DNA of 43,810 nt from IMG/VR virus record IMGVR_UViG_3300036773_000157, positions 1 through 43,810 of that record. The stretch is one strand, 5' to 3'. Both the position numbers and the translations under genes were made by a program. The notes under the pieces were generated by a model, which saw only the letters and a program-made list of their open reading frames with translations, did no database searches and had not been told where the DNA came from. The DNA comes from a virus. Lineage: Duplodnaviria; Caudoviricetes. Below are positions 21 to 36,130 of this stretch, piece after piece. The number at the start of each line of letters is the position of its first letter. The first letter of the stretch is position 1.

Positions 21-97
<77 letters not shown>

Positions 98-130
98 GCA
101 CTTAGCTGGAATTGGACCTGGCGGTTTTGA

Positions 131-1192
131 TCATGGTTTTGCATCCTTCGTTCGCGAGGCGTGCTCGTCCATGCGGCGGATGCGGTCGAGCAGCAGCTCG
201 TCCTTCTTCACGTAGCGGTCGATCAGGGTCTCCACGTAGTCCTCGGACCAGCCCATGACCTCGGCGATCTCGCGGATCGTCAGGCCCGATCCGTAGAACT
301 TGGTGGCGGCCGTGCCGCGCAGGTCATGGAAGTGCAGGTCGTCGATCCCGGCCTTGTCGCAGGCCTTCCCCCAGCTGGAGCCGAACCCGGTGCGCCACGG
401 CTGGCCTTCGGTCGTCACCAGGTAGGTCGTGGCGGCCTTGCGTTTGGGCAGGGCGTCCAGGTACTCGCGCAGCTCGGCGTAGAGCGGAATGATCACAGCG
501 CGGCCGGGGCGCCCATTGCGGCCCTTGTTCGAGCGGATCTCCAGGCTGTTGGGCTTGCGGTGCGCCGGGCCCAGCCGCAACAGCACGGACCGGCGCAGGC
601 CCGTGAGCCCGGCCAGGGTCGCGGCCTCGACGATCTCTTTCGAGGCGCTCTCCGCCAGCTTGGCGAGGTCGGCCGCGCGCCAGATCAGGCCGCTGCGGTC
701 GCTGTCGTAGATGCCGACGATGCCGGCGCAGACGTTGTTGAGCAGCTTGCCCTCGGCCTGACCGAAGCTCAGCAGCCGCGAGAGCACCTGCACGCCCATG
801 TCGGCCGCGCGCGGGGTGGCGGCGTGGCGGTCGCGCCACTTGGTGATGATCGGCCGGATCTGCGGGCGGTCGAAGTGCTCGATGCGCAACTCGCCGAATT
901 CGGTCTGGATGCGGTCGAGCCAAGTGGTCCAGCTGGCCTTGGTCTTGGCGCTGATCGGCTTGGGCCCGCGGCCGTTCCAGGCGTCCGAGGCGCGGAACAT
1001 GGCGCACAGCCCCGAGAGGCGGCTCCTGTCGCCGGTCTTGCGGCTGTCGTGGGCGTTCCTGAGGTCGGCGAGGAATTCGGCGCTGCCGGGCTCACCGCGC
1101 AGCCTGGGGGCGCCCTTGCCCCTCCATGCGTAATAGTAGGTGCGGCCCTTCGCGCGAACGACGTAGACGCCCTTGAGGTCAATCATAGCCAT
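131..1192 (-). CDS. int: Tyrosine recombinase/phage integrase
   Basis: Motifs TGLRRS (R), HFHDLRGT (HxxR), MGWS and C-terminal RYV (Y); N-terminal arm-binding-like YYYAWRG; adjacent to tRNA. Start set at ATG 1192 (1186 also possible). Confidence 0.93.
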   Translation of the reverse strand: MAMIDLKGVYVVRAKGRTYYYAWRGKGAPRLRGEPGSAEFLADLRNAHDSRKTGDRSRLSGLCAMFRASDAWNGRGPKPISAKTKASWTTWLDRIQTEFGELRIEHFDRPQIRPIITKWRDRHAATPRAADMGVQVLSRLLSFGQAEGKLLNNVCAGIVGIYDSDRSGLIWRAADLAKLAESASKEIVEAATLAGLTGLRRSVLLRLGPAHRKPNSLEIRSNKGRNGRPGRAVIIPLYAELREYLDALPKRKAATTYLVTTEGQPWRTGFGSSWGKACDKAGIDDLHFHDLRGTAATKFYGSGLTIREIAEVMGWSEDYVETLIDRYVKKDELLLDRIRRMDEHASRTKDAKP

Positions 1193-5355: not shown

Positions 5356-5531
5356 GGCTGGGGGCTTCTGGGTTGGGGATGGGGTAACGGCTCGGTCTTC
5401 CCTGCGAACGCCGTTCGCGCCTGGCTTCCCGCTGCTGTGATGGTGACCACCGCCTCCCAGCGCTTGGGCGCGTCCGCAGGGTCACGCATATGGGCCCGGC
5501 CTCTCGGCGTCCGCCCGGGGGTCTCGTCCAT
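5352..5531 (-). CDS. Small hypothetical protein
   Basis: ATG overlaps the ASCH stop (TGATG) and its stop overlaps the next ATG (ATGA). Confidence 0.4.
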   Translation of the reverse strand: MDETPGRTPRGRAHMRDPADAPKRWEAVVTITAAGSQARTAFAGKTEPLPHPQPRSPQP

Positions 5532-6025
5532 CACGCCCACCCGACGCGCGCGCAGATCTCGAGATGATCCAGCCGCCGGCCGACCCGTGCGTCGAGATCT
5601 TCCGGCGGCGTCCAGTTGAACAGTCCCTGTCGCCCGATGGCCGGGATCGGCTCGCCAAGCGGCCGGACGTCGGCGAGCGCCCAGGCGAAGCGGCCGGCGG
5701 TATAGTCGCCTGACGCTTCGTCGGCGCGCGTGATGTGTTCGACGACGGCGTCGGTGCGGCGGCAGGTCCGCAGTCGCGCGATCGCCACCACCATGCCCAG
5801 CGGGCATTGCTCCCACCAGGCCTGGCCGATGGCGCGGTGGCAGAGCCGCGCCGGCGCGCCGGCATAGTCGATGGTCTTGGCGGCGTGGATCGCGATCGGG
5901 CCGCGGTGCTCGGTGGACCAATGGCGTGTCTCGTGGGCCTTGAGCCCGAGCGCGACGAGGGTCGCCCATGGCTGCCAAAGGGAGATCGCCTTCATGGTCC
6001 GGGTGTCGCCGAAGAGGTCGCTCAC
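5531..6025 (-). CDS. ASCH domain protein
   Basis: MKAISLWQPWATLVALGLKAHETRHW...RGPIAIHA, GRFAW, GRQGLFNW (GxKxxETR motif). Confidence 0.88.
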   Translation of the reverse strand: MSDLFGDTRTMKAISLWQPWATLVALGLKAHETRHWSTEHRGPIAIHAAKTIDYAGAPARLCHRAIGQAWWEQCPLGMVVAIARLRTCRRTDAVVEHITRADEASGDYTAGRFAWALADVRPLGEPIPAIGRQGLFNWTPPEDLDARVGRRLDHLEICARVGWA

Positions 6026-7022: not shown

Positions 7023-8705
7023 TCAGCTCCAGGTCTTGTGAGAGTGGCCGCAGGCGGCGTTGAGGGCGAATGCGATCAGCTCGGCGCGGGCCGTGGCCAG
7101 GGCGTCGGGAAGCTCGCGGTCGTGATCGCAGACCGCAGCGTCATGGCCCTCGGCCCCGCTGACGCAGCCGGCCTCGACCGTGTTGGCGCGGAACGGCCCG
7201 GCGATGCCGGCGGCGTCGGCCAGGTCTCGGAAGTGCAGCTGGCCGTTGTTGCCGAACAGCCCGGTCGCTATGCCCGCGCGGACTTTCGCTAGAATCTCCG
7301 CAGCTTCGGCGGCTTGCCTCGCGTCCTCGTCATCCTCCCCCTCGGGCATCCCCTCCGCCGGCGGCGTTAAACCGGCGGAGGGGCGCTCGGGCGCCGACGG
7401 GGATGCAGGCCGTGGCGCGGGAGCCGGGGAAGGGACTGCGGCAGGAATGTCGTCGCCACCGGCGGCCGCAGGGGTCGGGGTGTTGAGCCAGTCCGTGGCG
7501 TAGCGGCCGGATTGTTCGGTCTCGCGGATTCGCTCCGACGGCCAGCCCATGGCGGCCAGGGCGGCGAAGTGGGCGTCGGCGTGGATCTCCGGCGCGAGGT
7601 GCGCTTCGGCCAACAGACGGCAGCCCCTCGGCGTGACGCTCGCCCCGATATGGCCGTCGCCCATTGACGTCATGGCCAGACCGGCCTTGATCAGGTTTCC
7701 CCAGTCGCGGTCGAGATAGATCTGTTGAGTGGCATCGACGGACCCCGCGAAAAACCCGGAGCCTGTGGCCGAATACTTCGCGCGAACCTCAACGAGCCGC
7801 AAATATTCCGTTGGGCGAAGGTCGGGTTTGAGCGCCGCCGGCGCGGGGGCGCGCTCCGTCAGCTGTTCGATAGGCTCGACCACCTCGGCCTGCGGCTCCG
7901 GCGCCGCCGCCTTCGGGGTGCGCACCCGCTCGCGCGCCTGTTCCCAGGTGATCAGCCCGCCCTCCAGGTCGGCGAGGTCTTCAGGCGGCAGCTCGGCCAG
8001 CACCTGCAGGCGCACCTGCACGTGGCGCTGCGTGCGCCCGACCCGCCGGGCGATGTCGGCGGTGCCCATTTCGTGCAGCTCCATCAGCCGCCTGAAGGCC
8101 TGGGCTTCCTCCAGCGGCGGCAGGTCGCGCCGCGCCAGGTTCTCCATCACCGCCTCGGTCAGCGCCTGGGCGTCGTCCAGATCGCGCACCGCGCAGGGCA
8201 GGGGATAGTCGGCGCCTACATCGCCCTGCTCGATCAGCCGGCCCACGGCCCGCCAGCGGCGCTCGCCCGAGACGATGCGGAACGGGGCGCCCGGCTCGGC
8301 CGGCGGGCGGACCGTCAGGTTCTGCTGGATGCGCCCCGCATCGAGGATGGCGGAGGCCAAGGCGGCCTCGTCGTCCAGGTCGAAGGTCTTGCGCGGGTTG
8401 AGCCGGTCGGGCGCCAGTTCGGCGTGCACGAAGGTGCGGAACCCGGCCGGCGCGGCCGGGGCCTCGGCGCGGTCGAGGGCGGCGAGGGTGCGATGACCAA
8501 GGTCGATCAGCACGGGGATGGCATGGCCCGGCGCCCCATCGATGTCGATCAGGCCCTCACGCTCCAGGGCCTTGAGGGACTTGCGCAGGTTGTCGGCGTC
8601 GCGGCCGATCAGCCGCGCCAGCCCGCCGACGTTGCCGAAGCCGCCGGCCGACAGCGCCCGCAGCACCTCGGCGTTCTGCACCGCCAGGGCCGTCAGCACG
8701 GTCAT
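7023..8705 (-). CDS. ParB/RepB/Spo0J-family protein with N-terminal HTH
   Basis: LNPRKTFD, IQQNLTVRP, IVSGERRWRA (GxRR CTP motif), ENLARRDLPPLEEAQAF, HTH IARRVGRTQRHV. Confidence 0.88.
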   Translation of the reverse strand: MTVLTALAVQNAEVLRALSAGGFGNVGGLARLIGRDADNLRKSLKALEREGLIDIDGAPGHAIPVLIDLGHRTLAALDRAEAPAAPAGFRTFVHAELAPDRLNPRKTFDLDDEAALASAILDAGRIQQNLTVRPPAEPGAPFRIVSGERRWRAVGRLIEQGDVGADYPLPCAVRDLDDAQALTEAVMENLARRDLPPLEEAQAFRRLMELHEMGTADIARRVGRTQRHVQVRLQVLAELPPEDLADLEGGLITWEQARERVRTPKAAAPEPQAEVVEPIEQLTERAPAPAALKPDLRPTEYLRLVEVRAKYSATGSGFFAGSVDATQQIYLDRDWGNLIKAGLAMTSMGDGHIGASVTPRGCRLLAEAHLAPEIHADAHFAALAAMGWPSERIRETEQSGRYATDWLNTPTPAAAGGDDIPAAVPSPAPAPRPASPSAPERPSAGLTPPAEGMPEGEDDEDARQAAEAAEILAKVRAGIATGLFGNNGQLHFRDLADAAGIAGPFRANTVEAGCVSGAEGHDAAVCDHDRELPDALATARAELIAFALNAACGHSHKTWS

Positions 8706-14497: not shown

Positions 14498-16573
14498 ATG
14501 AGGGGCGCTCACCCGACTGACGAACTGATCATCGACCTGTTCGCCGGCGGCGGCGGGGCGTCGACGGCGATCCTGAACGCCACCGGGCGCCATCCGGACG
14601 TGGCCGTGAACCACGACCTCGACGCGATCGGTATGCACGAGGCCAACCACCCGGCGACGCGGCACTTCCACTGCGACGTGCGCGAGGTTGATCCGGTCGT
14701 GGCCTGCACCGTGGACGGCGTGCTCCAGCCCGTCGGCTTGATGTGGGCGTCGCCCGACTGCACGCATTTCTCCAAGGCCCGCGGCGGCATGCCGGTCGAG
14801 AAGGGCATCCGCAGCCTGGCCGACGTGGTCGTGGACTGGGCGCGCGCCGTGCGGCCGCGGCTGATCCATCTCGAGAACGTCGAGGAGTTCCAGGACTGGG
14901 GCCCCGTGCTGGAGAACGGCCAACCCTGCCCGGAGCGCAAGGGGCTGGACTTCCGGCGCTGGGTCAAGGCGCTGGAGGACCTGGGCTACGTCGTCGACTG
15001 GCGCGAGCTGGTCGCCGCCGACTATGGCGCGCCGACCACCCGCAAGCGGCTGTTCCTGATCGCCCGCTGCGACGGCGAGCCGATCCGCTGGCCGGCGCCG
15101 ACCCATGCCAGCCGCGCCAAACTGGCCAAGGGCGAACTGTTCGGCAGCGCGCTGAAGCCGTGGCGGTCTGCCGCCGAGATCATCGATTGGTCTCTGCCGA
15201 TCCCCTCGATCTGGGACCGCAAGAAGCCTCTGGCCGACAAGACTCTCGCCCGGATCGCCAAGGGCGTCCGCCGCTTCGTGATCGAGAGCCCCAAGCCGTT
15301 CATCGTGCCGCTAACCCACAGCGGGCCGGGCCGGGTGCACGACCTGGCGGACCCGCTGCGCACGGTCACCGGGGCCAACGGCGGGGAGTTCTCGCTGATC
15401 GAACCGACCCTGGCTGTCGCCGGCGCCAGCGTCGGCGTGGGCGGCCGGGCCGGCCAGAGTCCGCCGCGCGGGCTGGACGACCCGTTGCATACCGTGATGG
15501 CCAAGGGTGACCGCGCCATCGCGTCCGCCATGCTGGTGCCGCGCTACGGCGAGCGGGAAGGGCAGGCGCCGCGCTCGCTCGACATCGGCGCGCCCTATCC
15601 GACCGTGGTCCCGACGGGGAACGGCGGCGACCTGAGCGTCGCCTACCTGAGCCGGCAGTTCGGCTCGACCGTCAGCGGTCGTGACCTCGACGAACCCGCG
15701 CCCACCGTCATGGGCGGGCGGGCCGCCGGCGGGAAGTCCGGCGTGGTCGCCGCGCACCTGTCGCGCATGGCCAAGGGCTCGGTCGGCGGCGATCTTGCCG
15801 ACCCCGCCAAGACGCTGCTGGCGCACAGCAAGGATGCGATCGTCGCAGCGCACCTCTCCAGCATCGCCTATGGCGACGACCGTCCGCGGGCCGGGCTGCG
15901 CGCTTCCTCCCCCGAGGAGTCCGTGGGGACGGTCACCGGGTCGAACGACAAGACCGTCGTCGCCGCCTGCCTGGAAAAATATTACGGGACCGGCGCCGCC
16001 GGGGCGGACGCTGAACAGCCGCTGCCCACCATCACCGACCGGATGCGCTTCGGTCTGGCCGGCGTGTTCATGGAGCAGGCGAACACCGGCATGGTCGGCC
16101 ATCCCATGGAGCGCCCGCTCAGCACCATCGTGGCCGGCGGCGGCGAGCACGTCGGCTGGGGAACAACTCAACGCCTGATCGAAGTCCGCCTCGCGGAGAT
16201 CGAATCCGAGGCCGGCCCGCGCCGCCGCAAGGTGCTGGAGTTCCTCTGGGCCCACTTCGGGCCGCCCAGCGAGGACGAATGGGCCGACCCGATCGCCACG
16301 GCCATGGGCCGGCTGCGCCTGGGCCTGGTGAGGATCGCCGGGGCCGTCTGGCAGATCGTCGACATCGGCATGCGCATGCTGGTCCCGCGCGAGCTGTTCA
16401 ACGCACAGGGCTTCCCGCCCGGCTACATCATCGACCGCACGGCCGACGGCCGCCCGATCACCAAGACCTCGCAGACCGCCAAGGCCGGCAACAGCGTCAG
16501 CCCGCCGATGGCCGAGGCGACGCTGCGGGAAAACCTGACGTGGATGACGCTGCCCGATCGGAGGGCCGCATGA
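14498..16573 (+). CDS. DNA (cytosine-5)-methyltransferase with expanded variable region
   Basis: Motif I DLFAGGGG, IV WASPDCTHFS, VI LENVEEF, VIII YGAPTTRKRLF, IX RELFNAQGFP, X AGNSVSPP. Confidence 0.95.
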   Translation: MRGAHPTDELIIDLFAGGGGASTAILNATGRHPDVAVNHDLDAIGMHEANHPATRHFHCDVREVDPVVACTVDGVLQPVGLMWASPDCTHFSKARGGMPVEKGIRSLADVVVDWARAVRPRLIHLENVEEFQDWGPVLENGQPCPERKGLDFRRWVKALEDLGYVVDWRELVAADYGAPTTRKRLFLIARCDGEPIRWPAPTHASRAKLAKGELFGSALKPWRSAAEIIDWSLPIPSIWDRKKPLADKTLARIAKGVRRFVIESPKPFIVPLTHSGPGRVHDLADPLRTVTGANGGEFSLIEPTLAVAGASVGVGGRAGQSPPRGLDDPLHTVMAKGDRAIASAMLVPRYGEREGQAPRSLDIGAPYPTVVPTGNGGDLSVAYLSRQFGSTVSGRDLDEPAPTVMGGRAAGGKSGVVAAHLSRMAKGSVGGDLADPAKTLLAHSKDAIVAAHLSSIAYGDDRPRAGLRASSPEESVGTVTGSNDKTVVAACLEKYYGTGAAGADAEQPLPTITDRMRFGLAGVFMEQANTGMVGHPMERPLSTIVAGGGEHVGWGTTQRLIEVRLAEIESEAGPRRRKVLEFLWAHFGPPSEDEWADPIATAMGRLRLGLVRIAGAVWQIVDIGMRMLVPRELFNAQGFPPGYIIDRTADGRPITKTSQTAKAGNSVSPPMAEATLRENLTWMTLPDRRAA

Positions 16574-17327: not shown

Positions 17328-17621
17328 CTACGCCGCCTCGGCCGGCGCCACCGTCAGCTTCAGGTGCAGGGCGGCGATCACCTTCAGGAAGGTGTCCAGC
17401 GTCGGGTTGCCCTCGGCGCTGAGCGCCTTGTGCAGGGCCTGGCGCGACAGGCCGGTCTGTTCGGCCAGGGTGGACATGCCACGGGAGCGGGCGACGGTTC
17501 CGAGGGCGTGGGCGATGTCGGAAGGGTTGCCTTCGGCGAACACCGCCTCCAGCACGCCGGCGACATCGTCGGGGGTTTCGATCAGGTGCGCTAGGTCAAG
17601 CGGCAGGGTCTTCAGGGCCAT
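17328..17621 (-). CDS. Addiction-module antidote (HTH antitoxin)
   Basis: IAHALGTVARSRGMSTLAEQTGLSRQALHKALSAEGNPTLDTFLKVIAAL. Confidence 0.92.
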   Translation of the reverse strand: MALKTLPLDLAHLIETPDDVAGVLEAVFAEGNPSDIAHALGTVARSRGMSTLAEQTGLSRQALHKALSAEGNPTLDTFLKVIAALHLKLTVAPAEAA

Positions 17622-17622
17622 C

Positions 17623-17913
17623 TCAAATCTCCTTCGCCAGTTTCAGCGCCCGCGAGATGTCGCGGTCCTGAGTGGATTTGTCTCCGCCGCAGAGCAGGAC
17701 GATGACTTCGCTGCCGCGGCGGACGAAATACAGCCGGTAGCCCGGCCCATAGTGGATGCGCGCTTCGCTCACGCCTTCGCCGACCGGCTTCGCGTCGCCG
17801 AGCGAGCCGTTCTGCATCACGATCATCCGGGCGACGATCCGCTGATGCGCCTTCCGGTCCCGCAGGCCTGCGAGCCATTCGGCGAAATCCTCGGTCTGGC
17901 GCATCTCGATCAT
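17623..17913 (-). CDS. RelE/ParE-superfamily addiction-module killer toxin (toxin-first order)
   Basis: FAEWLAGLRD, GSLGDAKPVGEGVSEARIHYGPGYRLYF, LLCGGDKSTQDRDI. Confidence 0.93.
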   Translation of the reverse strand: MIEMRQTEDFAEWLAGLRDRKAHQRIVARMIVMQNGSLGDAKPVGEGVSEARIHYGPGYRLYFVRRGSEVIVLLCGGDKSTQDRDISRALKLAKEI

Positions 17914-17993: not shown

Positions 17994-18227
17994 ATGAACA
18001 AGATCACCTACGTCAGGGTCGGCGGCCCGCCGGCCGACTGGCAGAGCATCGAAGTCGTCGACCTCGACACCGGCCAGCTGGTCGAGGGCGTGATCGAGGT
18101 CGATTCCGACTGCGGCTGGCTGGTGCGCCGCGCGTCCCCGGCCTGGTCCGCGGCCTGGCAGACGGGCGCCGCCCCGGCCCCGGAGCGGATCAAGGGCCGG
18201 TTCTACCTGCGGCGGAGGCGAGTATGA
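17994..18227 (+). CDS. Hypothetical protein
   Basis: MNKITYVRVGG...; coupled to the next gene. Confidence 0.6.
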   Translation: MNKITYVRVGGPPADWQSIEVVDLDTGQLVEGVIEVDSDCGWLVRRASPAWSAAWQTGAAPAPERIKGRFYLRRRRV

Positions 18228-18949
18228 AGCCCGCCGGATCCTCCGCCGTCATGGCCGCCCGGGCGCCGGAGCTGGTGGAGGCCGACGACTCGCGCCAGGC
18301 GCTGCACCGCAAGCTGGAGTACTTCCCGACGCCCCCATGGGCGGCCCGGGCCGGCGGCGAGCTGATCGCGCGTCTCGACGCCGGACCCTGGCAGGCCTGG
18401 GAGCCGGCCTGCGGCGAGGGCCACATGGCCCATGGGCTGGCCGACGACTTCGCCCGCGTGCACGCCTCCGACATCCACGACCATGGCTGGGACGGCCAGC
18501 ATGGGCCGCCGCTCGACTTCCTGGGCCGCGATGCCGACGTCTTCACCGAGGCCGACTGGATCGTCACCAATCCGCCGTTCGGCCTGGCCGCCGAGTTCGT
18601 GCAGGCGGGCCTGCGACGGGCGCGCCGCGGCGTGGCAGTGCTGGCCCGCACCACCTGGTTCGAAAGCGCTGAGCGCTATCCGCTGTTCTTCGGCGAGACG
18701 CCGCTCTCGGTGTTCGCGCCGTTCTTCGAGCGGGTGCCGATGGCGCTGGGTCGATGGGAGCCGAAGGGCTCCACGGCCACGGCCTATGCGTGGTTCGTCT
18801 GGATGAAGCCGTCGACGAGCCGGGACTCCACCACGCCCATCGTCAAGCCCATCCCTCCCGGAACGCGCCACCGCCTGACCCGGCCCGACGACGCCCGGCT
18901 GTTCGGGGCCAAGGCGGGCGCGCCGCTGTTCGACGAGGTGAGCGGATGA
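18224..18949 (+). CDS. SAM-dependent amino (N6A/N4C-type) DNA methyltransferase
   Basis: YFPTPPW, WEPACGEGHM (SAM-binding), WIVTNPPF (catalytic). Confidence 0.88.
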   Translation: MKPAGSSAVMAARAPELVEADDSRQALHRKLEYFPTPPWAARAGGELIARLDAGPWQAWEPACGEGHMAHGLADDFARVHASDIHDHGWDGQHGPPLDFLGRDADVFTEADWIVTNPPFGLAAEFVQAGLRRARRGVAVLARTTWFESAERYPLFFGETPLSVFAPFFERVPMALGRWEPKGSTATAYAWFVWMKPSTSRDSTTPIVKPIPPGTRHRLTRPDDARLFGAKAGAPLFDEVSG

Positions 18950-19438: not shown

Positions 19439-19495
19439 TCGATCCCCCAGGCCCGCCGGGGGACCGGGGCGGGCGCCGTTATGGAGGAAGCCCTT

Positions 19496-20020
19496 ATGGC
19501 TGACGGAGGCTCGAATATCGACGTGCTGAACAGCACAGCCCAAGGCCAGCTGAAGTCCATTATTGAGCGCGTCGAGCGCCTGGAAGTGGAAAAGGCCGAG
19601 GTCGCCGAACAGATCAAGGAAGTGTTCGCCGAGGCCAAGGGCAACGGGTTCGACGTGAAGATCCTGCGCCGCGTGGTGCGCCTGCGAAAGACCGACAAGG
19701 CTAAGCGCCAGGAGGAGGACGCCATCCTCGACCTCTATCTCGCAGCATTGGGCGAGTTGCCGCTGTTCGAGCGGGCGGCGGCGCCGTCGAGCGACGCGAT
19801 CGTGACGGCGCAGGACGTGATCGACGTGGCGCACACGCTGTATCGGGAGGCTGTGGCGCTCGTGCTGGAGAACCGCAACGCCTCGACCTCCTTCGTCCAG
19901 CGCAAGCTCCAACTGCCCCACAAGACGGCCCTCGTGCTGATGGACCTGATGGAGGCGCAGGGCGTGGTCTCGCCGGCCGACTTCAAGGGCAAGCGCCAAG
20001 TGTTGGCGCTGGCCCCATGA
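19496..20020 (+). CDS. gapR: GapR (DUF2312) nucleoid-associated domain fused to an FtsK gamma-like winged helix
   Basis: DVLNSTAQGQLKSIIERVERLEVEKAE..EQIKEVFAEAKGNGFDVK...RQEEDAILDLYL (GapR), then LYREAVALVLENRNASTSFVQRKL...MDLMEAQGVVSPADFKGKRQVL (FtsK gamma); SD GGAGG. Confidence 0.88.
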   Translation: MADGGSNIDVLNSTAQGQLKSIIERVERLEVEKAEVAEQIKEVFAEAKGNGFDVKILRRVVRLRKTDKAKRQEEDAILDLYLAALGELPLFERAAAPSSDAIVTAQDVIDVAHTLYREAVALVLENRNASTSFVQRKLQLPHKTALVLMDLMEAQGVVSPADFKGKRQVLALAP

Positions 20021-20271
20021 GCAAGCGCCACGCGCCACGCCCGCCGGACCTGTTCGGCGAGCGCCAAGACGACCGGGTCGAGCGGGTAAACCTGATCGAT
20101 ATCGCCCTGCACCTGCACCACCAGACGGGGAAGGCCTGGCTGCTGTCCGACGACGGCGACGTGAAGTCCGCCAAGTGGCTGGCGTTCTCCATGGGCCAGC
20201 GGGGCGAGGGCCGGGACGACGGGGTGTGGACGATGGCGGTGTGGAAGGCGAAGGAGCTGGGCTGGGTCTGA
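20017..20271 (+). CDS. Small phage hypothetical protein
   Basis: HHQTGKAWLL....KWL....WKAKELG pattern; coupled at both ends. Confidence 0.7.
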   Translation: MSKRHAPRPPDLFGERQDDRVERVNLIDIALHLHHQTGKAWLLSDDGDVKSAKWLAFSMGQRGEGRDDGVWTMAVWKAKELGWV

Positions 20272-21179
20272 TGGGGGTTTCGGGGGCGTACGATCTTGGG
20301 GCTTGGTCCGACGGCCTGGCCGAGTGGGTTGATGGCGATACGGCGTTCCTGTCGGTCGCCTTCACCTGGAAGCTGGACGAGGCCTATGCGCGGGCGCTGT
20401 GGCATCGCGCGGCCGGCCGCAAGGTGCGGGTCGGCGGCCCCGGCGTGTTCACCCGCAAGCACTACCTCGCCGACGTCGCCGAGATCGGCGGCTCGATTCC
20501 GGACGCCTTGGTGCGCCACAATCCCATGGCCACGAAGGCCAGCGAGGGCTGCCCGGTCGGGTGCTTCTTCTGCATCGTCCCGGCGATGGAGGGGCGCGAG
20601 TTCACGTTGCTGCCGGAGTTCGTCCCGCGGCCTGTGCTGACGGACAACAACCTGTCCGCCCTGCCGGCCGAGTATCAGCAGTTCATCGTCGACCGATATG
20701 TGGGCGCCGGCGTGCCGTTGCTGGACGCCAACAGCGGGTTTGAGCCGAAGACCTTCGACGAAGAGGTGTTCGAGCGCTGGCGGCCGATCAATCGCGGCCC
20801 ATGGCGCTTCGGGTCGGACGAGGCGCTGGAGCGGGCGGATGTCGAGCGGGTGCTGGGGATGCTGCGCCAGCGCGGCGTCGGCGCCCGCCGGATCCAGGTC
20901 TATACGATGATCGGCCATGAGCCGTTCGACGTCTGCATGGAGCGCCTCCGCCATGTGATCGAGCATGGCGGCGAGCCCTACGTGCAGCCGATCATGAAGC
21001 TGAACGCCCTGCGCAAGGAGCCCTGGGTCCGCCACGACTGGACGCCCCTTAAGCTCCGCCAGGTGCAGCGCTGGGCGAACCGGCACATCTGGCGCACCTC
21101 GCCGTTCGAGGACTACCGGGCTTCTGAGAAGTCCCGCGGCGCGCCGATCGACGATCTGCAGGGGAGCTTCGCCCTGTGA
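20271..21179 (+). CDS. Radical SAM protein with a truncated cobalamin-binding-like N-terminus
   Basis: ASEGCPVGCFFC (CxxxCxxC), LSVAFTW, RVGGPG, DNN, VYTMIG. Confidence 0.75.
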   Translation: MGVSGAYDLGAWSDGLAEWVDGDTAFLSVAFTWKLDEAYARALWHRAAGRKVRVGGPGVFTRKHYLADVAEIGGSIPDALVRHNPMATKASEGCPVGCFFCIVPAMEGREFTLLPEFVPRPVLTDNNLSALPAEYQQFIVDRYVGAGVPLLDANSGFEPKTFDEEVFERWRPINRGPWRFGSDEALERADVERVLGMLRQRGVGARRIQVYTMIGHEPFDVCMERLRHVIEHGGEPYVQPIMKLNALRKEPWVRHDWTPLKLRQVQRWANRHIWRTSPFEDYRASEKSRGAPIDDLQGSFAL

Positions 21180-22198
21180 GCACCGACGCCACCACCTGGG
21201 CTAAGGCGCAGAAGTGCCCTTCGGCGCGCGCCAAGGCCGTGCTGATCTGTCTGGCGCCATACGCCGACGCCGAAGGCATGGCCTGGGCTGCAATCGACGT
21301 CCTGGTGATAGAGACCGAGCTTAAGATCGCGCGGACCGTCCAGCGCGGGCTGGCCGACCTGAAGGCCGCCGGGCTGATCGAAGAGACCGGCGAGACCAAG
21401 GTCTTCAAGGGCAGGATCTATCCGATCTATCGGCTGCCGCTGGAGCGCGGTCCGGCCAACACCCGCGAGCGCCTGGCCATGGACCGCGCGGAGCTTGGGG
21501 TGACGCCAGTGTCACCCCATGGGGCTTGGGGTGACACCACAGTCACCCCGCGGGGTGACACCGGAGACGCGCTTGGGGTGACACCCATGTCACCCAAAGA
21601 GAACCAACAGAATCTCCAACCTAACTCTCAGGGCGCGAGCGCGGGCGAGCCCGAGTGGCGCGCAGGGTTCGAAGCCCTCAAGGCCGCGGTCCCGGCGCTG
21701 ATGGTCGCCAACTCGAACCTGGACCAGGCGCTGCAGGCCTACATCGAACTGGCCCAAGGCGGTCAACCGGTTGAGAAACTTGCGCTTTATGCGGCCAGGA
21801 TGGCGGTCCATCCGACGACCCTGAAGCGGGATTTCGCCCCGGTCGGGCTCGAAAAGTGGCTGCGCTGGGGCCGCTGGGAGGGCTGGACGGACGAAGCCCT
21901 GGCGAAGAGCGGGCAGGGTTCGGCTGCCGGCAGCGCCGCCGGCTCGACGCGAACGCCGTTCGCCGATCCCCACATTCGAGCCGCTCTGGTGGCCATGTCC
22001 AGCGGGGCCTCGGTGGCCAGCTACCTCGACCCCTGCGGCTGGGATCCGGCCGGGCGGACGATCACGCCCAGGACGACGATGGCGCGCAAGTGGCTGGCCG
22101 AGAAGCTGCGGCATTGGGCGGGACCGAGTGAGGCGCCGCTCCTGGCGGCGCCGGCGCAGGCGGGCGCCGTGAACAGATCAGTCGAAGGGGTGTCGTGA
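21176..22198 (+). CDS. Replication initiator (N-terminal HTH, lambda O-like layout)
   Basis: AKAVLICLAPYADAEGMAW..IDVL...RTVQRGLADL..AGLI; internal iterons. Confidence 0.85.
   Translation: MSTDATTWAKAQKCPSARAKAVLICLAPYADAEGMAWAAIDVLVIETELKIARTVQRGLADLKAAGLIEETGETKVFKGRIYPIYRLPLERGPANTRERLAMDRAELGVTPVSPHGAWGDTTVTPRGDTGDALGVTPMSPKENQQNLQPNSQGASAGEPEWRAGFEALKAAVPALMVANSNLDQALQAYIELAQGGQPVEKLALYAARMAVHPTTLKRDFAPVGLEKWLRWGRWEGWTDEALAKSGQGSAAGSAAGSTRTPFADPHIRAALVAMSSGASVASYLDPCGWDPAGRTITPRTTMARKWLAEKLRHWAGPSEAPLLAAPAQAGAVNRSVEGVS
21493..21630. repeat. Putative replication origin: palindromic iterons plus A-rich tract
   Basis: GCTTGGGGTGAC-N6-GTCACCC at 21493, 21524 and 21571, a half site GGGGTGAC at 21552, then A/C-rich 21596-21630. 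Confidence 0.8.
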
Positions 22199-22884: not shown

Positions 22885-23766
22885 TTGGGCTATCTCACCA
22901 ACCTGCAGCCGACCTTGGGCGCGCTGCCGCCGCGCATCGCGCGCACGGCCGACGCCGAGGGCCACAGCGTCACGGTCGAGTTCTGGCGCAGCTGGTACAA
23001 GCTGGCGCGCTGGAAGCGGCTCAGGCTTCGGGTCTTTCTCAGGGATCTCTACACCTGCCAGCGCGCAGAGTGCGGGCGCCTGATCGGCGACACCTCGCAG
23101 CTGGTGGCCGACCATAAGGAGCCGCACCGCGGCGATGCGGTGTTGTTCTGGGAAGAGGACAACATCCAGACGCTGTGCGCCCCGTGCCACAACCGCTTCA
23201 AGCAGTCGCAGGAGCGTGCGGACCGGATAGGCGGTCTCCCGTCAGGCTCACGCCACGCCAGTCCGGGCAGGATGGCGCGGCCGGATTGGTTCCGTCGCGT
23301 GCACGTTCCGCTGACCGTGGTGTGCGGACCGCCGGGCGCCGGCAAGTCCACCTATGTCCGACACCATGCCGGCCCGGACGACCGGATCATCTGCTTCGAC
23401 GAGATCGCCACCCAGCTGATCGGGCGGACCGGGCCGATGCGGACGCAGGCGGCGCTGAGCGTCGATCAGATCGCGGACATCCTGCGCGTGCGCAACGAAG
23501 CGCTCGGCGACCTGATGCGGGTCAAGGCCAAGGCGATCTGCCCAGCGGCCTGGCTGATCCTCACCGAACCCAAGGCCGAGCATCGGACATGGTGGGCCGA
23601 GACGCTGGGCGCCCGCATCGTGGTGATGCCGACGCCCGCCGCCCTCTGTCGCGAGCGCATTGCCCACGACGCTGCGAACGGCGACATCCGCGGCGAGGGC
23701 GCGCGGCGCCTCATCGACGAATGGTGGCGCGTCTACCGCCCCGCCGAGATCGACGTCATCGGCTGA
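22885..23766 (+). CDS. Packaging-type HNH endonuclease fused to a P-loop NTPase domain
   Basis: RDLYTCQ..C, VADHKEPHRGD, NIQTLCAPCHN; then VVCGPPGAGKSTYV, IICFDEI. Confidence 0.85.
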   Translation: MGYLTNLQPTLGALPPRIARTADAEGHSVTVEFWRSWYKLARWKRLRLRVFLRDLYTCQRAECGRLIGDTSQLVADHKEPHRGDAVLFWEEDNIQTLCAPCHNRFKQSQERADRIGGLPSGSRHASPGRMARPDWFRRVHVPLTVVCGPPGAGKSTYVRHHAGPDDRIICFDEIATQLIGRTGPMRTQAALSVDQIADILRVRNEALGDLMRVKAKAICPAAWLILTEPKAEHRTWWAETLGARIVVMPTPAALCRERIAHDAANGDIRGEGARRLIDEWWRVYRPAEIDVIG

Positions 23767-35450: not shown

Positions 35451-35816
35451 TCACGCGCGCTCCATGTCGCCGACCAATGCGGCGGCCGGGATGCGCCATT
35501 CGCGGGCCAGCAGGCGGATATTGTCGAGCGTCAACTCACGCTTTCCGTTCATGATCTCGGAGGCGCGAGAACGGGATCCAAGCAGGCCGGCCAGGTCCTT
35601 CTGGGTGCGGTCGCCTTGCTCCATCATGAACTTGAGCATGTCCAGTGGAGCGACGCGGGTCGCCGGATAGATCTTTTCCTCGTACTTGTGGACAAGGACC
35701 GCGAGGATTTCGAGGCGGTCGCCATCGTCGGTCCCGACCTCCGCGTTCCAAAGGCGGTCGATTTCGCGCAGCGCGGCTTCGTGGTCCGCATCGCTACGAA
35801 TGGGTTGGATTTCCAT
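35451..35816 (-). CDS. higA: HigA antitoxin (XRE HTH)
   Basis: IQPIRSDADHEAALREI..L, LEILAVLVHKYEEK, TQKDLAGLLGSRSRASEIMNGKRELT. Confidence 0.92.
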   Translation of the reverse strand: MEIQPIRSDADHEAALREIDRLWNAEVGTDDGDRLEILAVLVHKYEEKIYPATRVAPLDMLKFMMEQGDRTQKDLAGLLGSRSRASEIMNGKRELTLDNIRLLAREWRIPAAALVGDMERA

Positions 35817-35827
35817 AGCTGTGCTCC

Positions 35828-36130
35828 TCAGAACTGGGCGACGGTGGCGGCGTCGATGCGGTCGTATTCCGCATGCGTGCCGATGAACTTCACGAACGCC
35901 CACTGGCGCCCGAAATTGAACGAAACGATCAGGCGGTAGTCTCCGCCCGATATTTGAAACCGCGCACGGTCTCCATTGATCGCCTTCGAATTGGCGAAAG
36001 CGCGGACCACTTCGTCCATCGTGGCCCACTCGCCCGCCCGAAGAGCAACGATCCAGCGATCAACCGAACTCGTCACCACCGGATGCTTGGCGGCGTAGCG
36101 GCGAAGGGTGCGTTCGGTGACCAAGTGCAT
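35828..36130 (-). CDS. higB: HigB toxin
   Basis: RARFQISGGDYRLIV...FVKFIGTHAEYDRID. Confidence 0.93.
   Translation of the reverse strand: MHLVTERTLRRYAAKHPVVTSSVDRWIVALRAGEWATMDEVVRAFANSKAINGDRARFQISGGDYRLIVSFNFGRQWAFVKFIGTHAEYDRIDAATVAQF

Follow-up and report, generated by a model that had tools for sequence, protein, structure and literature searches.

A prophage gene joining GapR to an FtsK-gamma domain, with a candidate sliding-clamp motif at the junction

The fusion gene and its prophage setting

What could a prophage do with a protein in which a copy of the DNA-encircling host protein GapR is joined to the DNA-reading gamma domain of FtsK? The question was raised by gene P0001, located at 19496..20020 on the plus strand of a 43,810-nucleotide stretch of viral DNA, the whole of which is referred to here as the window. 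The gene formed a single frame of 174 residues with no internal stop; a GGAGG word resembling a ribosome-binding site was found 8 nt before its ATG (19483..19487, plus strand), and its stop overlapped the start of the next gene as ATGA. An earlier note, made from the sequence alone, had placed GapR and FtsK gamma in one gene, and our profile search for the DUF2312+FtsK_gamma architecture confirmed this. GapR_DNA-bd was recognized at residues 15-86 with 112 bits (Pfam cut-off 22.6) and FtsK_gamma at residues 114-170 with 65 bits (cut-off 30.6), while the NCBIfam GapR equivalog NF052541 gave 157.6 bits against a cut-off of 140.

By Pfam, NF052541 and alignment, the GapR domain comprised residues 1-88 (19496..19759, plus strand). 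It was followed by E87-L-P-L-F91 (19754..19768, plus strand), a candidate motif for binding the beta clamp (DnaN) whose first two residues, E87 and L88, overlap the end of the GapR domain, and by a linker of residues 92-113 (19769..19834, plus strand), which was delimited from the predicted structure. The FtsK-gamma winged helix occupied residues 114-170 (19835..20005, plus strand; Pfam, structure overlay and alignment) and included an altered loop and recognition helix at residues 140-150, LPHKTALVLMD (19913..19945, plus strand; alignment). An AlphaFold model built on a 41-sequence alignment had a mean pLDDT of 84.6 and a pTM of 0.40; because of the latter, the arrangement of the domains was not fixed by the model. 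The three-helix GapR fold was present in it, and the predicted C-terminal domain overlaid the FtsK gamma structures 2ve8 and 2ve9, its best structural matches, at 0.5-2.0 Å rmsd. The linker was modeled as a low-confidence coil (94-102) and then as a helix continuing into gamma helix 1. Unlike full FtsK, the 174 residues held no ATPase motor or membrane domain, and the FtsK/SpoIIIE translocase profile reached only 32.9 bits against a cut-off of 1566. The public database product over 19802-20020 has 72 residues, beginning at the GTG of V103, and represents the gamma domain alone; its start was probably mis-called.

A 19-kb Logan contig of run X1 spanned 19610-21200, including the domain junction and the recognition helix, with 0 differences; because this assembly may itself derive from X1, the contig is a re-assembly check and no independent sample. 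A compensated frameshift or sequence error behind LPHKTAL was considered and is unlikely, as the re-assembly agreed throughout and, by eye, the neighboring frames did not restore the usual motif.

The DNA was that of a prophage integrated in tRNA-Pro(TGG) (21-97). The 49-bp attL core (51..99, plus strand), in the 3' end of the tRNA gene, was found again on host contig C6 (G000:C6, ca. 16074-16122), and a 134-bp overlap between contigs C6 and C4 gave a complete element of 59.7 kb. A tyrosine integrase (131..1186, minus strand; PHROG 1) lay beside attL and a repressor near 11.5-12 kb. The fusion gene was part of a rightward early operon, three genes before an O-like replication initiator (21176..22198, plus strand; PHROG 1032/391), with the genes for terminase, head and tail after it. 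The predicted phage origin, 1.5 kb downstream of the fusion gene, consists of four palindromic iteron-like repeats within the initiator gene (21494..21599, no strand assigned), recognized by their repeat pattern, and no KOPS occurred among them. The prophage setting and nearby iteron origin described in the earlier note were thus upheld. A promoter scan returned two sigma-70-like sites, both on the minus strand, and none for the fusion operon. Judged by its GapR and FtsK, the host is probably Caulobacteraceae-like.

Several other features of the element and the host assembly were recorded. Toxin-antitoxin-like gene pairs at 17328-17913 and 35451-36019, both on the minus strand, oppose the early and tail operons; an HNH endonuclease fused to an AAA_33 domain (22885-23766) directly precedes the terminase genes; and a ParB-like protein of 560 residues with an N-terminal HTH-like segment is encoded in the leftward operon (7023-8705, minus strand). 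On host contig G000:C81 (27938-28691), two different ftsK 3' ends stand head to head beside a second lolA/xth-like neighbor set. This join is likely a chimeric contig with a contaminant (genome contamination 6.58%), and two extra gamma matches on that contig were ruled out as phage genes, being the joined ftsK 3' ends.

The GapR part and the candidate clamp motif

The GapR part was identical to the product of the host gapR at 78 of 88 residues and to the gene at 214 of 264 bases, with 28 synonymous codon changes. Host GapR was the nearest of 109 rows (92% over 76 columns), in a sample seeded with the fusion protein. Residues implicated in DNA binding or structure in the account of PMC7373187, from which we took their roles, were all retained: C. 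crescentus E28, K34, K42, K49, K56, R65 and K66 were kept, including the E28-R65 pair, and K59 was present as R, as it was in 43 of 53 relatives. GapR tetramers have been reported to encircle DNA and to stimulate the type II topoisomerases gyrase and topo IV. The likeness of the two GapR parts makes mixing of the fusion with host GapR plausible. When two GapR domains of the fusion were modeled in a complex with two chains of C. crescentus GapR, the score was 0.63, but one unrelated control reached 0.59, so the model speaks neither for nor against mixing.

The earlier note had described a short linker here; its opening residues resemble a clamp motif. All chromosomal GapRs that were read (26/26) ended in GEI, while the fusion ran on as ELPLF, one residue (D to E) from the beta-clamp motif DLPLF of Caulobacter MutS. 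In C. crescentus, MutS is reported to require 849-DLPLF-853 for replisome foci (bioRxiv 10.1101/2020.07.13.200147, the same work as PMC8034640), and the host MutS carried DLPLF at position 851 of 899. Relative to the canonical motif, given as QL(S/D)LF (PMC9690074), ELPLF is without the Q; it matches the MutS word at 4 of 5 positions. Whereas the C. crescentus MutS motif lies near the C-terminus, that of the fusion abuts GapR helix 3, the tetramer helix.

Close GapR-gamma proteins carried the pattern [DEG][LAM]PLF in 36 of 46 cases and unfused homologues in 11 of 67, frequently at the very end of the protein in the latter, and none of the 26 chromosomal GapRs had it. Among the tails of distant cluster representatives, 14 of 78 had an LPLF-like or QxxhF word (QLDMF, QGDLF, QGELF, QPDFF) in the same place, compared with a mean of 0.63 and a maximum of 5 in 2000 shuffles; a control gave 2 matches in 10,501 residues. 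These patterns were chosen post hoc, after the sequences had been seen. The spacing of the tag from GapR helix 3 varied by 4 residues, and the carriers were scattered on the GapR tree.

Other observations weigh against a clamp-binding role. Frames of the host genome (ca. 905,000 residues) contained 6 [DE]LPLF words where 1.9 were expected, which shows that lone matches do turn up fortuitously. The counterpart of E87 in C. crescentus, E88, is reported to form a salt bridge inside the closed tetramer (PMC7498317), and part of the tag may therefore be buried. A TPL or TPI word stood at the tag position in 15 of the 78 distant tails, suggesting a common structural helix start there; alternatively, the tag may be a structural element that prolongs the GapR tetramer. 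Of the 84 two-domain clusters, no more than 10 carried it (9 of the 45 with the GapR-gamma order, 1 of the 39 with the gamma-GapR order), and it is therefore not the family's defining feature. On balance, we put binding of the clamp by the candidate tag at slightly under an even chance.

Short clamp-motif-like words, which may be chance matches, were also seen in other early proteins: APLF near the end of a methyltransferase (18224-18949), PDLF near the start of an 84-residue gene product (20017-20271), QGSF at the end of a radical-SAM-like gene (20271-21179), ELF inside a large methyltransferase (14498-16573) and DLF in the first residues encoded by a short leftward gene (5531-6025).

The reading that we tentatively prefer, with confidence well below even, is that of a clamp-tethered GapR at replication forks. 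The fusion would form DNA-encircling GapR rings, the ELPLF tag would tether them to the host beta sliding clamp, and the gamma domain, no longer specific for KOPS, would act as a second DNA grip that adds avidity, so that host gyrase and topo IV would be stimulated at the forks that the phage borrows. Borrowing is consistent with the gene content, as PHROG scans of the 67 window ORFs found the initiator and no polymerase, helicase or clamp, and the host genome carries its own gapR, ftsK and dnaN, the last at G000:C56:17822-18934. Against the clamp tether stands the geometry of the fork: GapR acts ahead of it, and clamps sit at or behind it. Ring formation, mixing with host GapR, clamp binding, KOPS blindness and a benefit to the phage are each steps that we infer. 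A wider version of the proposal is itself unlikely, namely that among alphaproteobacterial phages a topology adaptor riding on the replisome has been put together again and again from a GapR ring, a MutS-type clamp tag and an FtsK reading head, this copy being a natural KOPS-blind or re-specified variant uncoupled from host chromosome polarity.

Binding of the tag to DnaN, if it occurs, would couple GapR-type supercoil handling physically and directly to the sliding clamp, a connection that host GapR is without, and would offer an explanation for the frequent carriage of GapR by alphaproteobacterial phages. Failing that, the fusion belongs to a common accessory gene family as one of its eroded members. 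Natural variants with and without the tag, with intact or altered helix and in both domain orders, together with cultured Rhodobacter phages, make the role of FtsK gamma in phages testable.

The gamma domain, its relatives and the competing readings

The segment LPHKTAL (residues 140-146; 19913-19933) aligned with IGYNRAA of the host FtsK, as the earlier note had read it, but it was no family trait, being found in 1 of 54 close fusions. Most relatives kept the G-Y/F-N-x-A of the host; across 53 of them the helix segment read G47/N5/D1, Y42/F11, N51, R28/K7/T6/S6/H5, A52 and A42/S10, and IGYNRAA was read in each of the 30 top-scoring FtsK loci from the host family. The KOPS contact residues were taken from the N1296A/R1300A/E1303A allele of gamma, which is reported to be KOPS-blind (PMC2533119). 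K143, V147 and D150 of the fusion stood at E. coli N1296, R1300 and E1303, so that all three positions differed from E. coli. Alphaproteobacterial FtsK is already without R1300, the host having S there, and D at 1303 was not rare (10 of 88 wider-family gammas). The gamma core was kept, along with S130, S132, Q135, R136, G165, K166 and R167. At 32 conserved columns the domain had 7 residues unseen in the 53 relatives (the next member had 3), and 5 of the 7 fell among the 7 such columns that residues 141-150 contain (hypergeometric p = 0.002, an optimistic value because the segment had been named beforehand from the same sequence). Since the changes gather on the KOPS-reading face and leave the fold intact, the gamma domain is predicted to be folded, DNA-binding and KOPS-blind.

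The pairing of the two domains was widespread. Among the best 120 of 2164 homologues, 53 had both domains (45 GapR-gamma, 8 gamma-GapR); in a 50%-identity library, both were present in 86 of the best 150 clusters, in both orders (44 and 40, plus 2 with two gammas), and a Pfam scan of 30 selected two-domain clusters found both in 25. A full-length match was present in 4 of 401 host-family genomes, a count that the reverse order would escape. Five loci that were read (G267, G280, G352, L001 and L077; 5/5), from ORF calls and similarity to window proteins, resembled phage early regions, with head modules that differed where seen. Domain order and presence changed repeatedly on a poorly resolved GapR tree, with no fewer than 4-5 changes forced; the hypothesis that GapR-gamma arose once gave an AU p of 0.059, on trees of 59-79 columns that were mostly unresolved. 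Weak gamma matches in G075 and G161 were dropped because by eye they resembled MarR-type regulators. Side products of the searches were small proteins of two or three tandem FtsK-gamma domains (P0158, P0203, P0233 and P0256), a background to which is the report that three gammas bind one KOPS (PMC5052618), and locus L224 (G091:C2, ca. 4.4-5.1 kb), where gamma, a cysteine-pair insert and GapR share one frame.

That the protein is a plain extra phage GapR, a nucleoid or transcription helper akin to T4 DsbA, is somewhat unlikely in our judgment. PLF would then be an extension of the tetramer helix and gamma an optional passenger, eroding in this copy. DsbA has been described as a GapR homologue (PMC7824862), 68 of 69 scorable viral GapR loci were without gamma, and gamma was also found on unrelated phage proteins, inside an unrelated frame at L225 and on a small terminase (PMC8190038). 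Erosion would agree with the divergence of the fusion gammas, whose median identity to the host gamma was 73% compared with 89% among hosts, with the second-longest end branch of this copy (0.72) and with the loss of both N1296 and E1303 in 9 of 88 wider-family gammas. However, the changes here lay on one face and were not scattered, the gamma core and codon bias were intact (53 of 57 codons in the domain were GC-ending), the pairing recurred in both orders, and Q-type tags occupied the same slot in other lineages, all of which argue against this reading.

Host interference is distinctly unlikely. Under this explanation the fusion would enter host GapR rings and occupy clamps, and members with an intact helix would block KOPS or XerD, stalling host replication and division in lytic growth. 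The fusion does copy three host chromosome-handling surfaces, with a GapR part nearest that of its own host, and N1296 was retained by 51 of 53 gammas of close relatives and by 72 of 88 in the wider family. The host also offers the corresponding target: when 6192 octamer pairs of its genome were ranked by strand polarity, GGGCAGGG came first and GGGGAGGG second, which indicated ordinary KOPS, GGGNAGGG. A precedent for toxicity by clamp blocking in Caulobacter, SocB, is described in a review. Conversely, the GapR DNA-binding residues of the fusion are intact, unlike those of a dominant-negative allele, the KOPS face of this copy is lost, and a phage with an O-type initiator needs the same clamp and topoisomerases.

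The earlier note had offered, as one possibility, redirection of the GapR activity to a new sequence, such as the phage origin, through a retargeted helix; we regard this as improbable. Clustering of the changes on the DNA-reading surface, with the fold preserved, and the iteron origin close downstream would suit it. So would the KOPS of the prophage: 15 were found (13 plus, 2 minus) where 14.6 were expected, 13 of them co-oriented with the flanks (8 plus, 1 minus), so no enrichment or depletion was seen in the prophage, a level in line with that reported for lambdoid prophages (PMC3603311). As these KOPS were host-like, KOPS reading could not separate phage from host DNA. On the other hand, the only 8-mer enriched in the prophage after correction was the word of the iterons, an enrichment for which the initiator would account; that enrichment search revealed no new target word for the altered helix, which has gained two hydrophobic residues, L146 and V147. 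The LPHKTAL helix was also sought in other sequences. No copy scored among 199 candidates of a region search, a KLQLPHKT pattern found no such locus among 71 in a viral scan, and in a metagenome scan 1 of 347 pattern matches was confirmed, as an ordinary FtsK-like end with a different helix. With no second copy found, retargeting and erosion are indistinguishable and selection cannot be shown. Redirection thus gained no support beyond the clustered changes, and the relatives mostly keep the KOPS helix.

XafT of the TLC phage reportedly switches on host XerCD without FtsK. A similar role for the fusion, with gamma kept for its XerD-activating surface to resolve phage dimers, is very improbable: at the XerD interface (Q1288, R1289, R1292, I1293, G1294, N1296), Q1288 and R1289, the latter reported as the most important XerD contact, were retained by the fusion and by all 53 close relatives, and free gamma fusions are reported to activate XerD (PMC5052618), but the next two positions (Q139, L140) were as in relatives, the G1294 and N1296 contacts were lost, the same residues are reported to contact DNA as well (PMC5052618), and the prophage has its own integrase and tRNA att site. 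A rough dif pattern had 0 matches in the window and 0 in the host genome as well, and so carries no weight on either side.

Comparison with known systems

A literature search in which subscription coverage was thin returned no description of a GapR-gamma fusion or of a GapR tag, and supplementary annotation tables may list the architecture. Phage GapR and phage gamma add-ons are already in print; what is new here is the ELPLF tag.

Both domains stand in one ORF, as in the fusion, in RcKemmy gp60 and RcOceanus gp48 of Rhodobacter phages and in ANH49054 of Ruegeria phage 45A6, proteins that are annotated as hypothetical or FtsK. The RcKemmy and RcOceanus proteins have EPPLF after GapR. Unlike the fusion, these cultured-phage proteins have the reverse order (gamma-gamma-GapR-tail or gamma-GapR). 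The fusion also does not fit the RcKemmy gp60/gp61-type module, which has a long C-terminal tail and an adjacent AAA ATPase; tblastn with the Rhodobacter AAA ATPase gave no match in the window or in 9 related loci.

The FtsK_gamma-small terminase of Bacillus phages Sam46 and Sam112 likewise sets a host-derived gamma on a phage DNA-binding protein, as reported in PMC8190038, although its partner is TerS and its DNA-binding sites are described there as conserved, unlike those of the fusion. The GapR homologue of Erythrobacter phage R34L1 (PMC12185513) and T4 DsbA (PMC7824862) are, like the fusion, phage-carried proteins of the GapR fold, and the portions of those two reports that were available mention no gamma domain or tag for them.

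Compared with FtsK gamma itself (PF09397; PDB 2ve8, 2ve9, 2j5p, 5dcf), the C-terminal domain has the same fold and keeps the equivalents of Q1288, R1289, A1298, G1318 and R1320, whereas G1294, Y1295, N1296, A1299 and E1303 are replaced by P, H, K, L and D. With C. crescentus GapR (PF10073, NF052541; PDB 6cg8, 6jyk, 6ozx), residues 6-88 of the fusion align without gaps (E 6.5e-40); unlike that protein, the fusion is prophage-borne, and past the GEI end it continues into PLF, a linker and a gamma domain.
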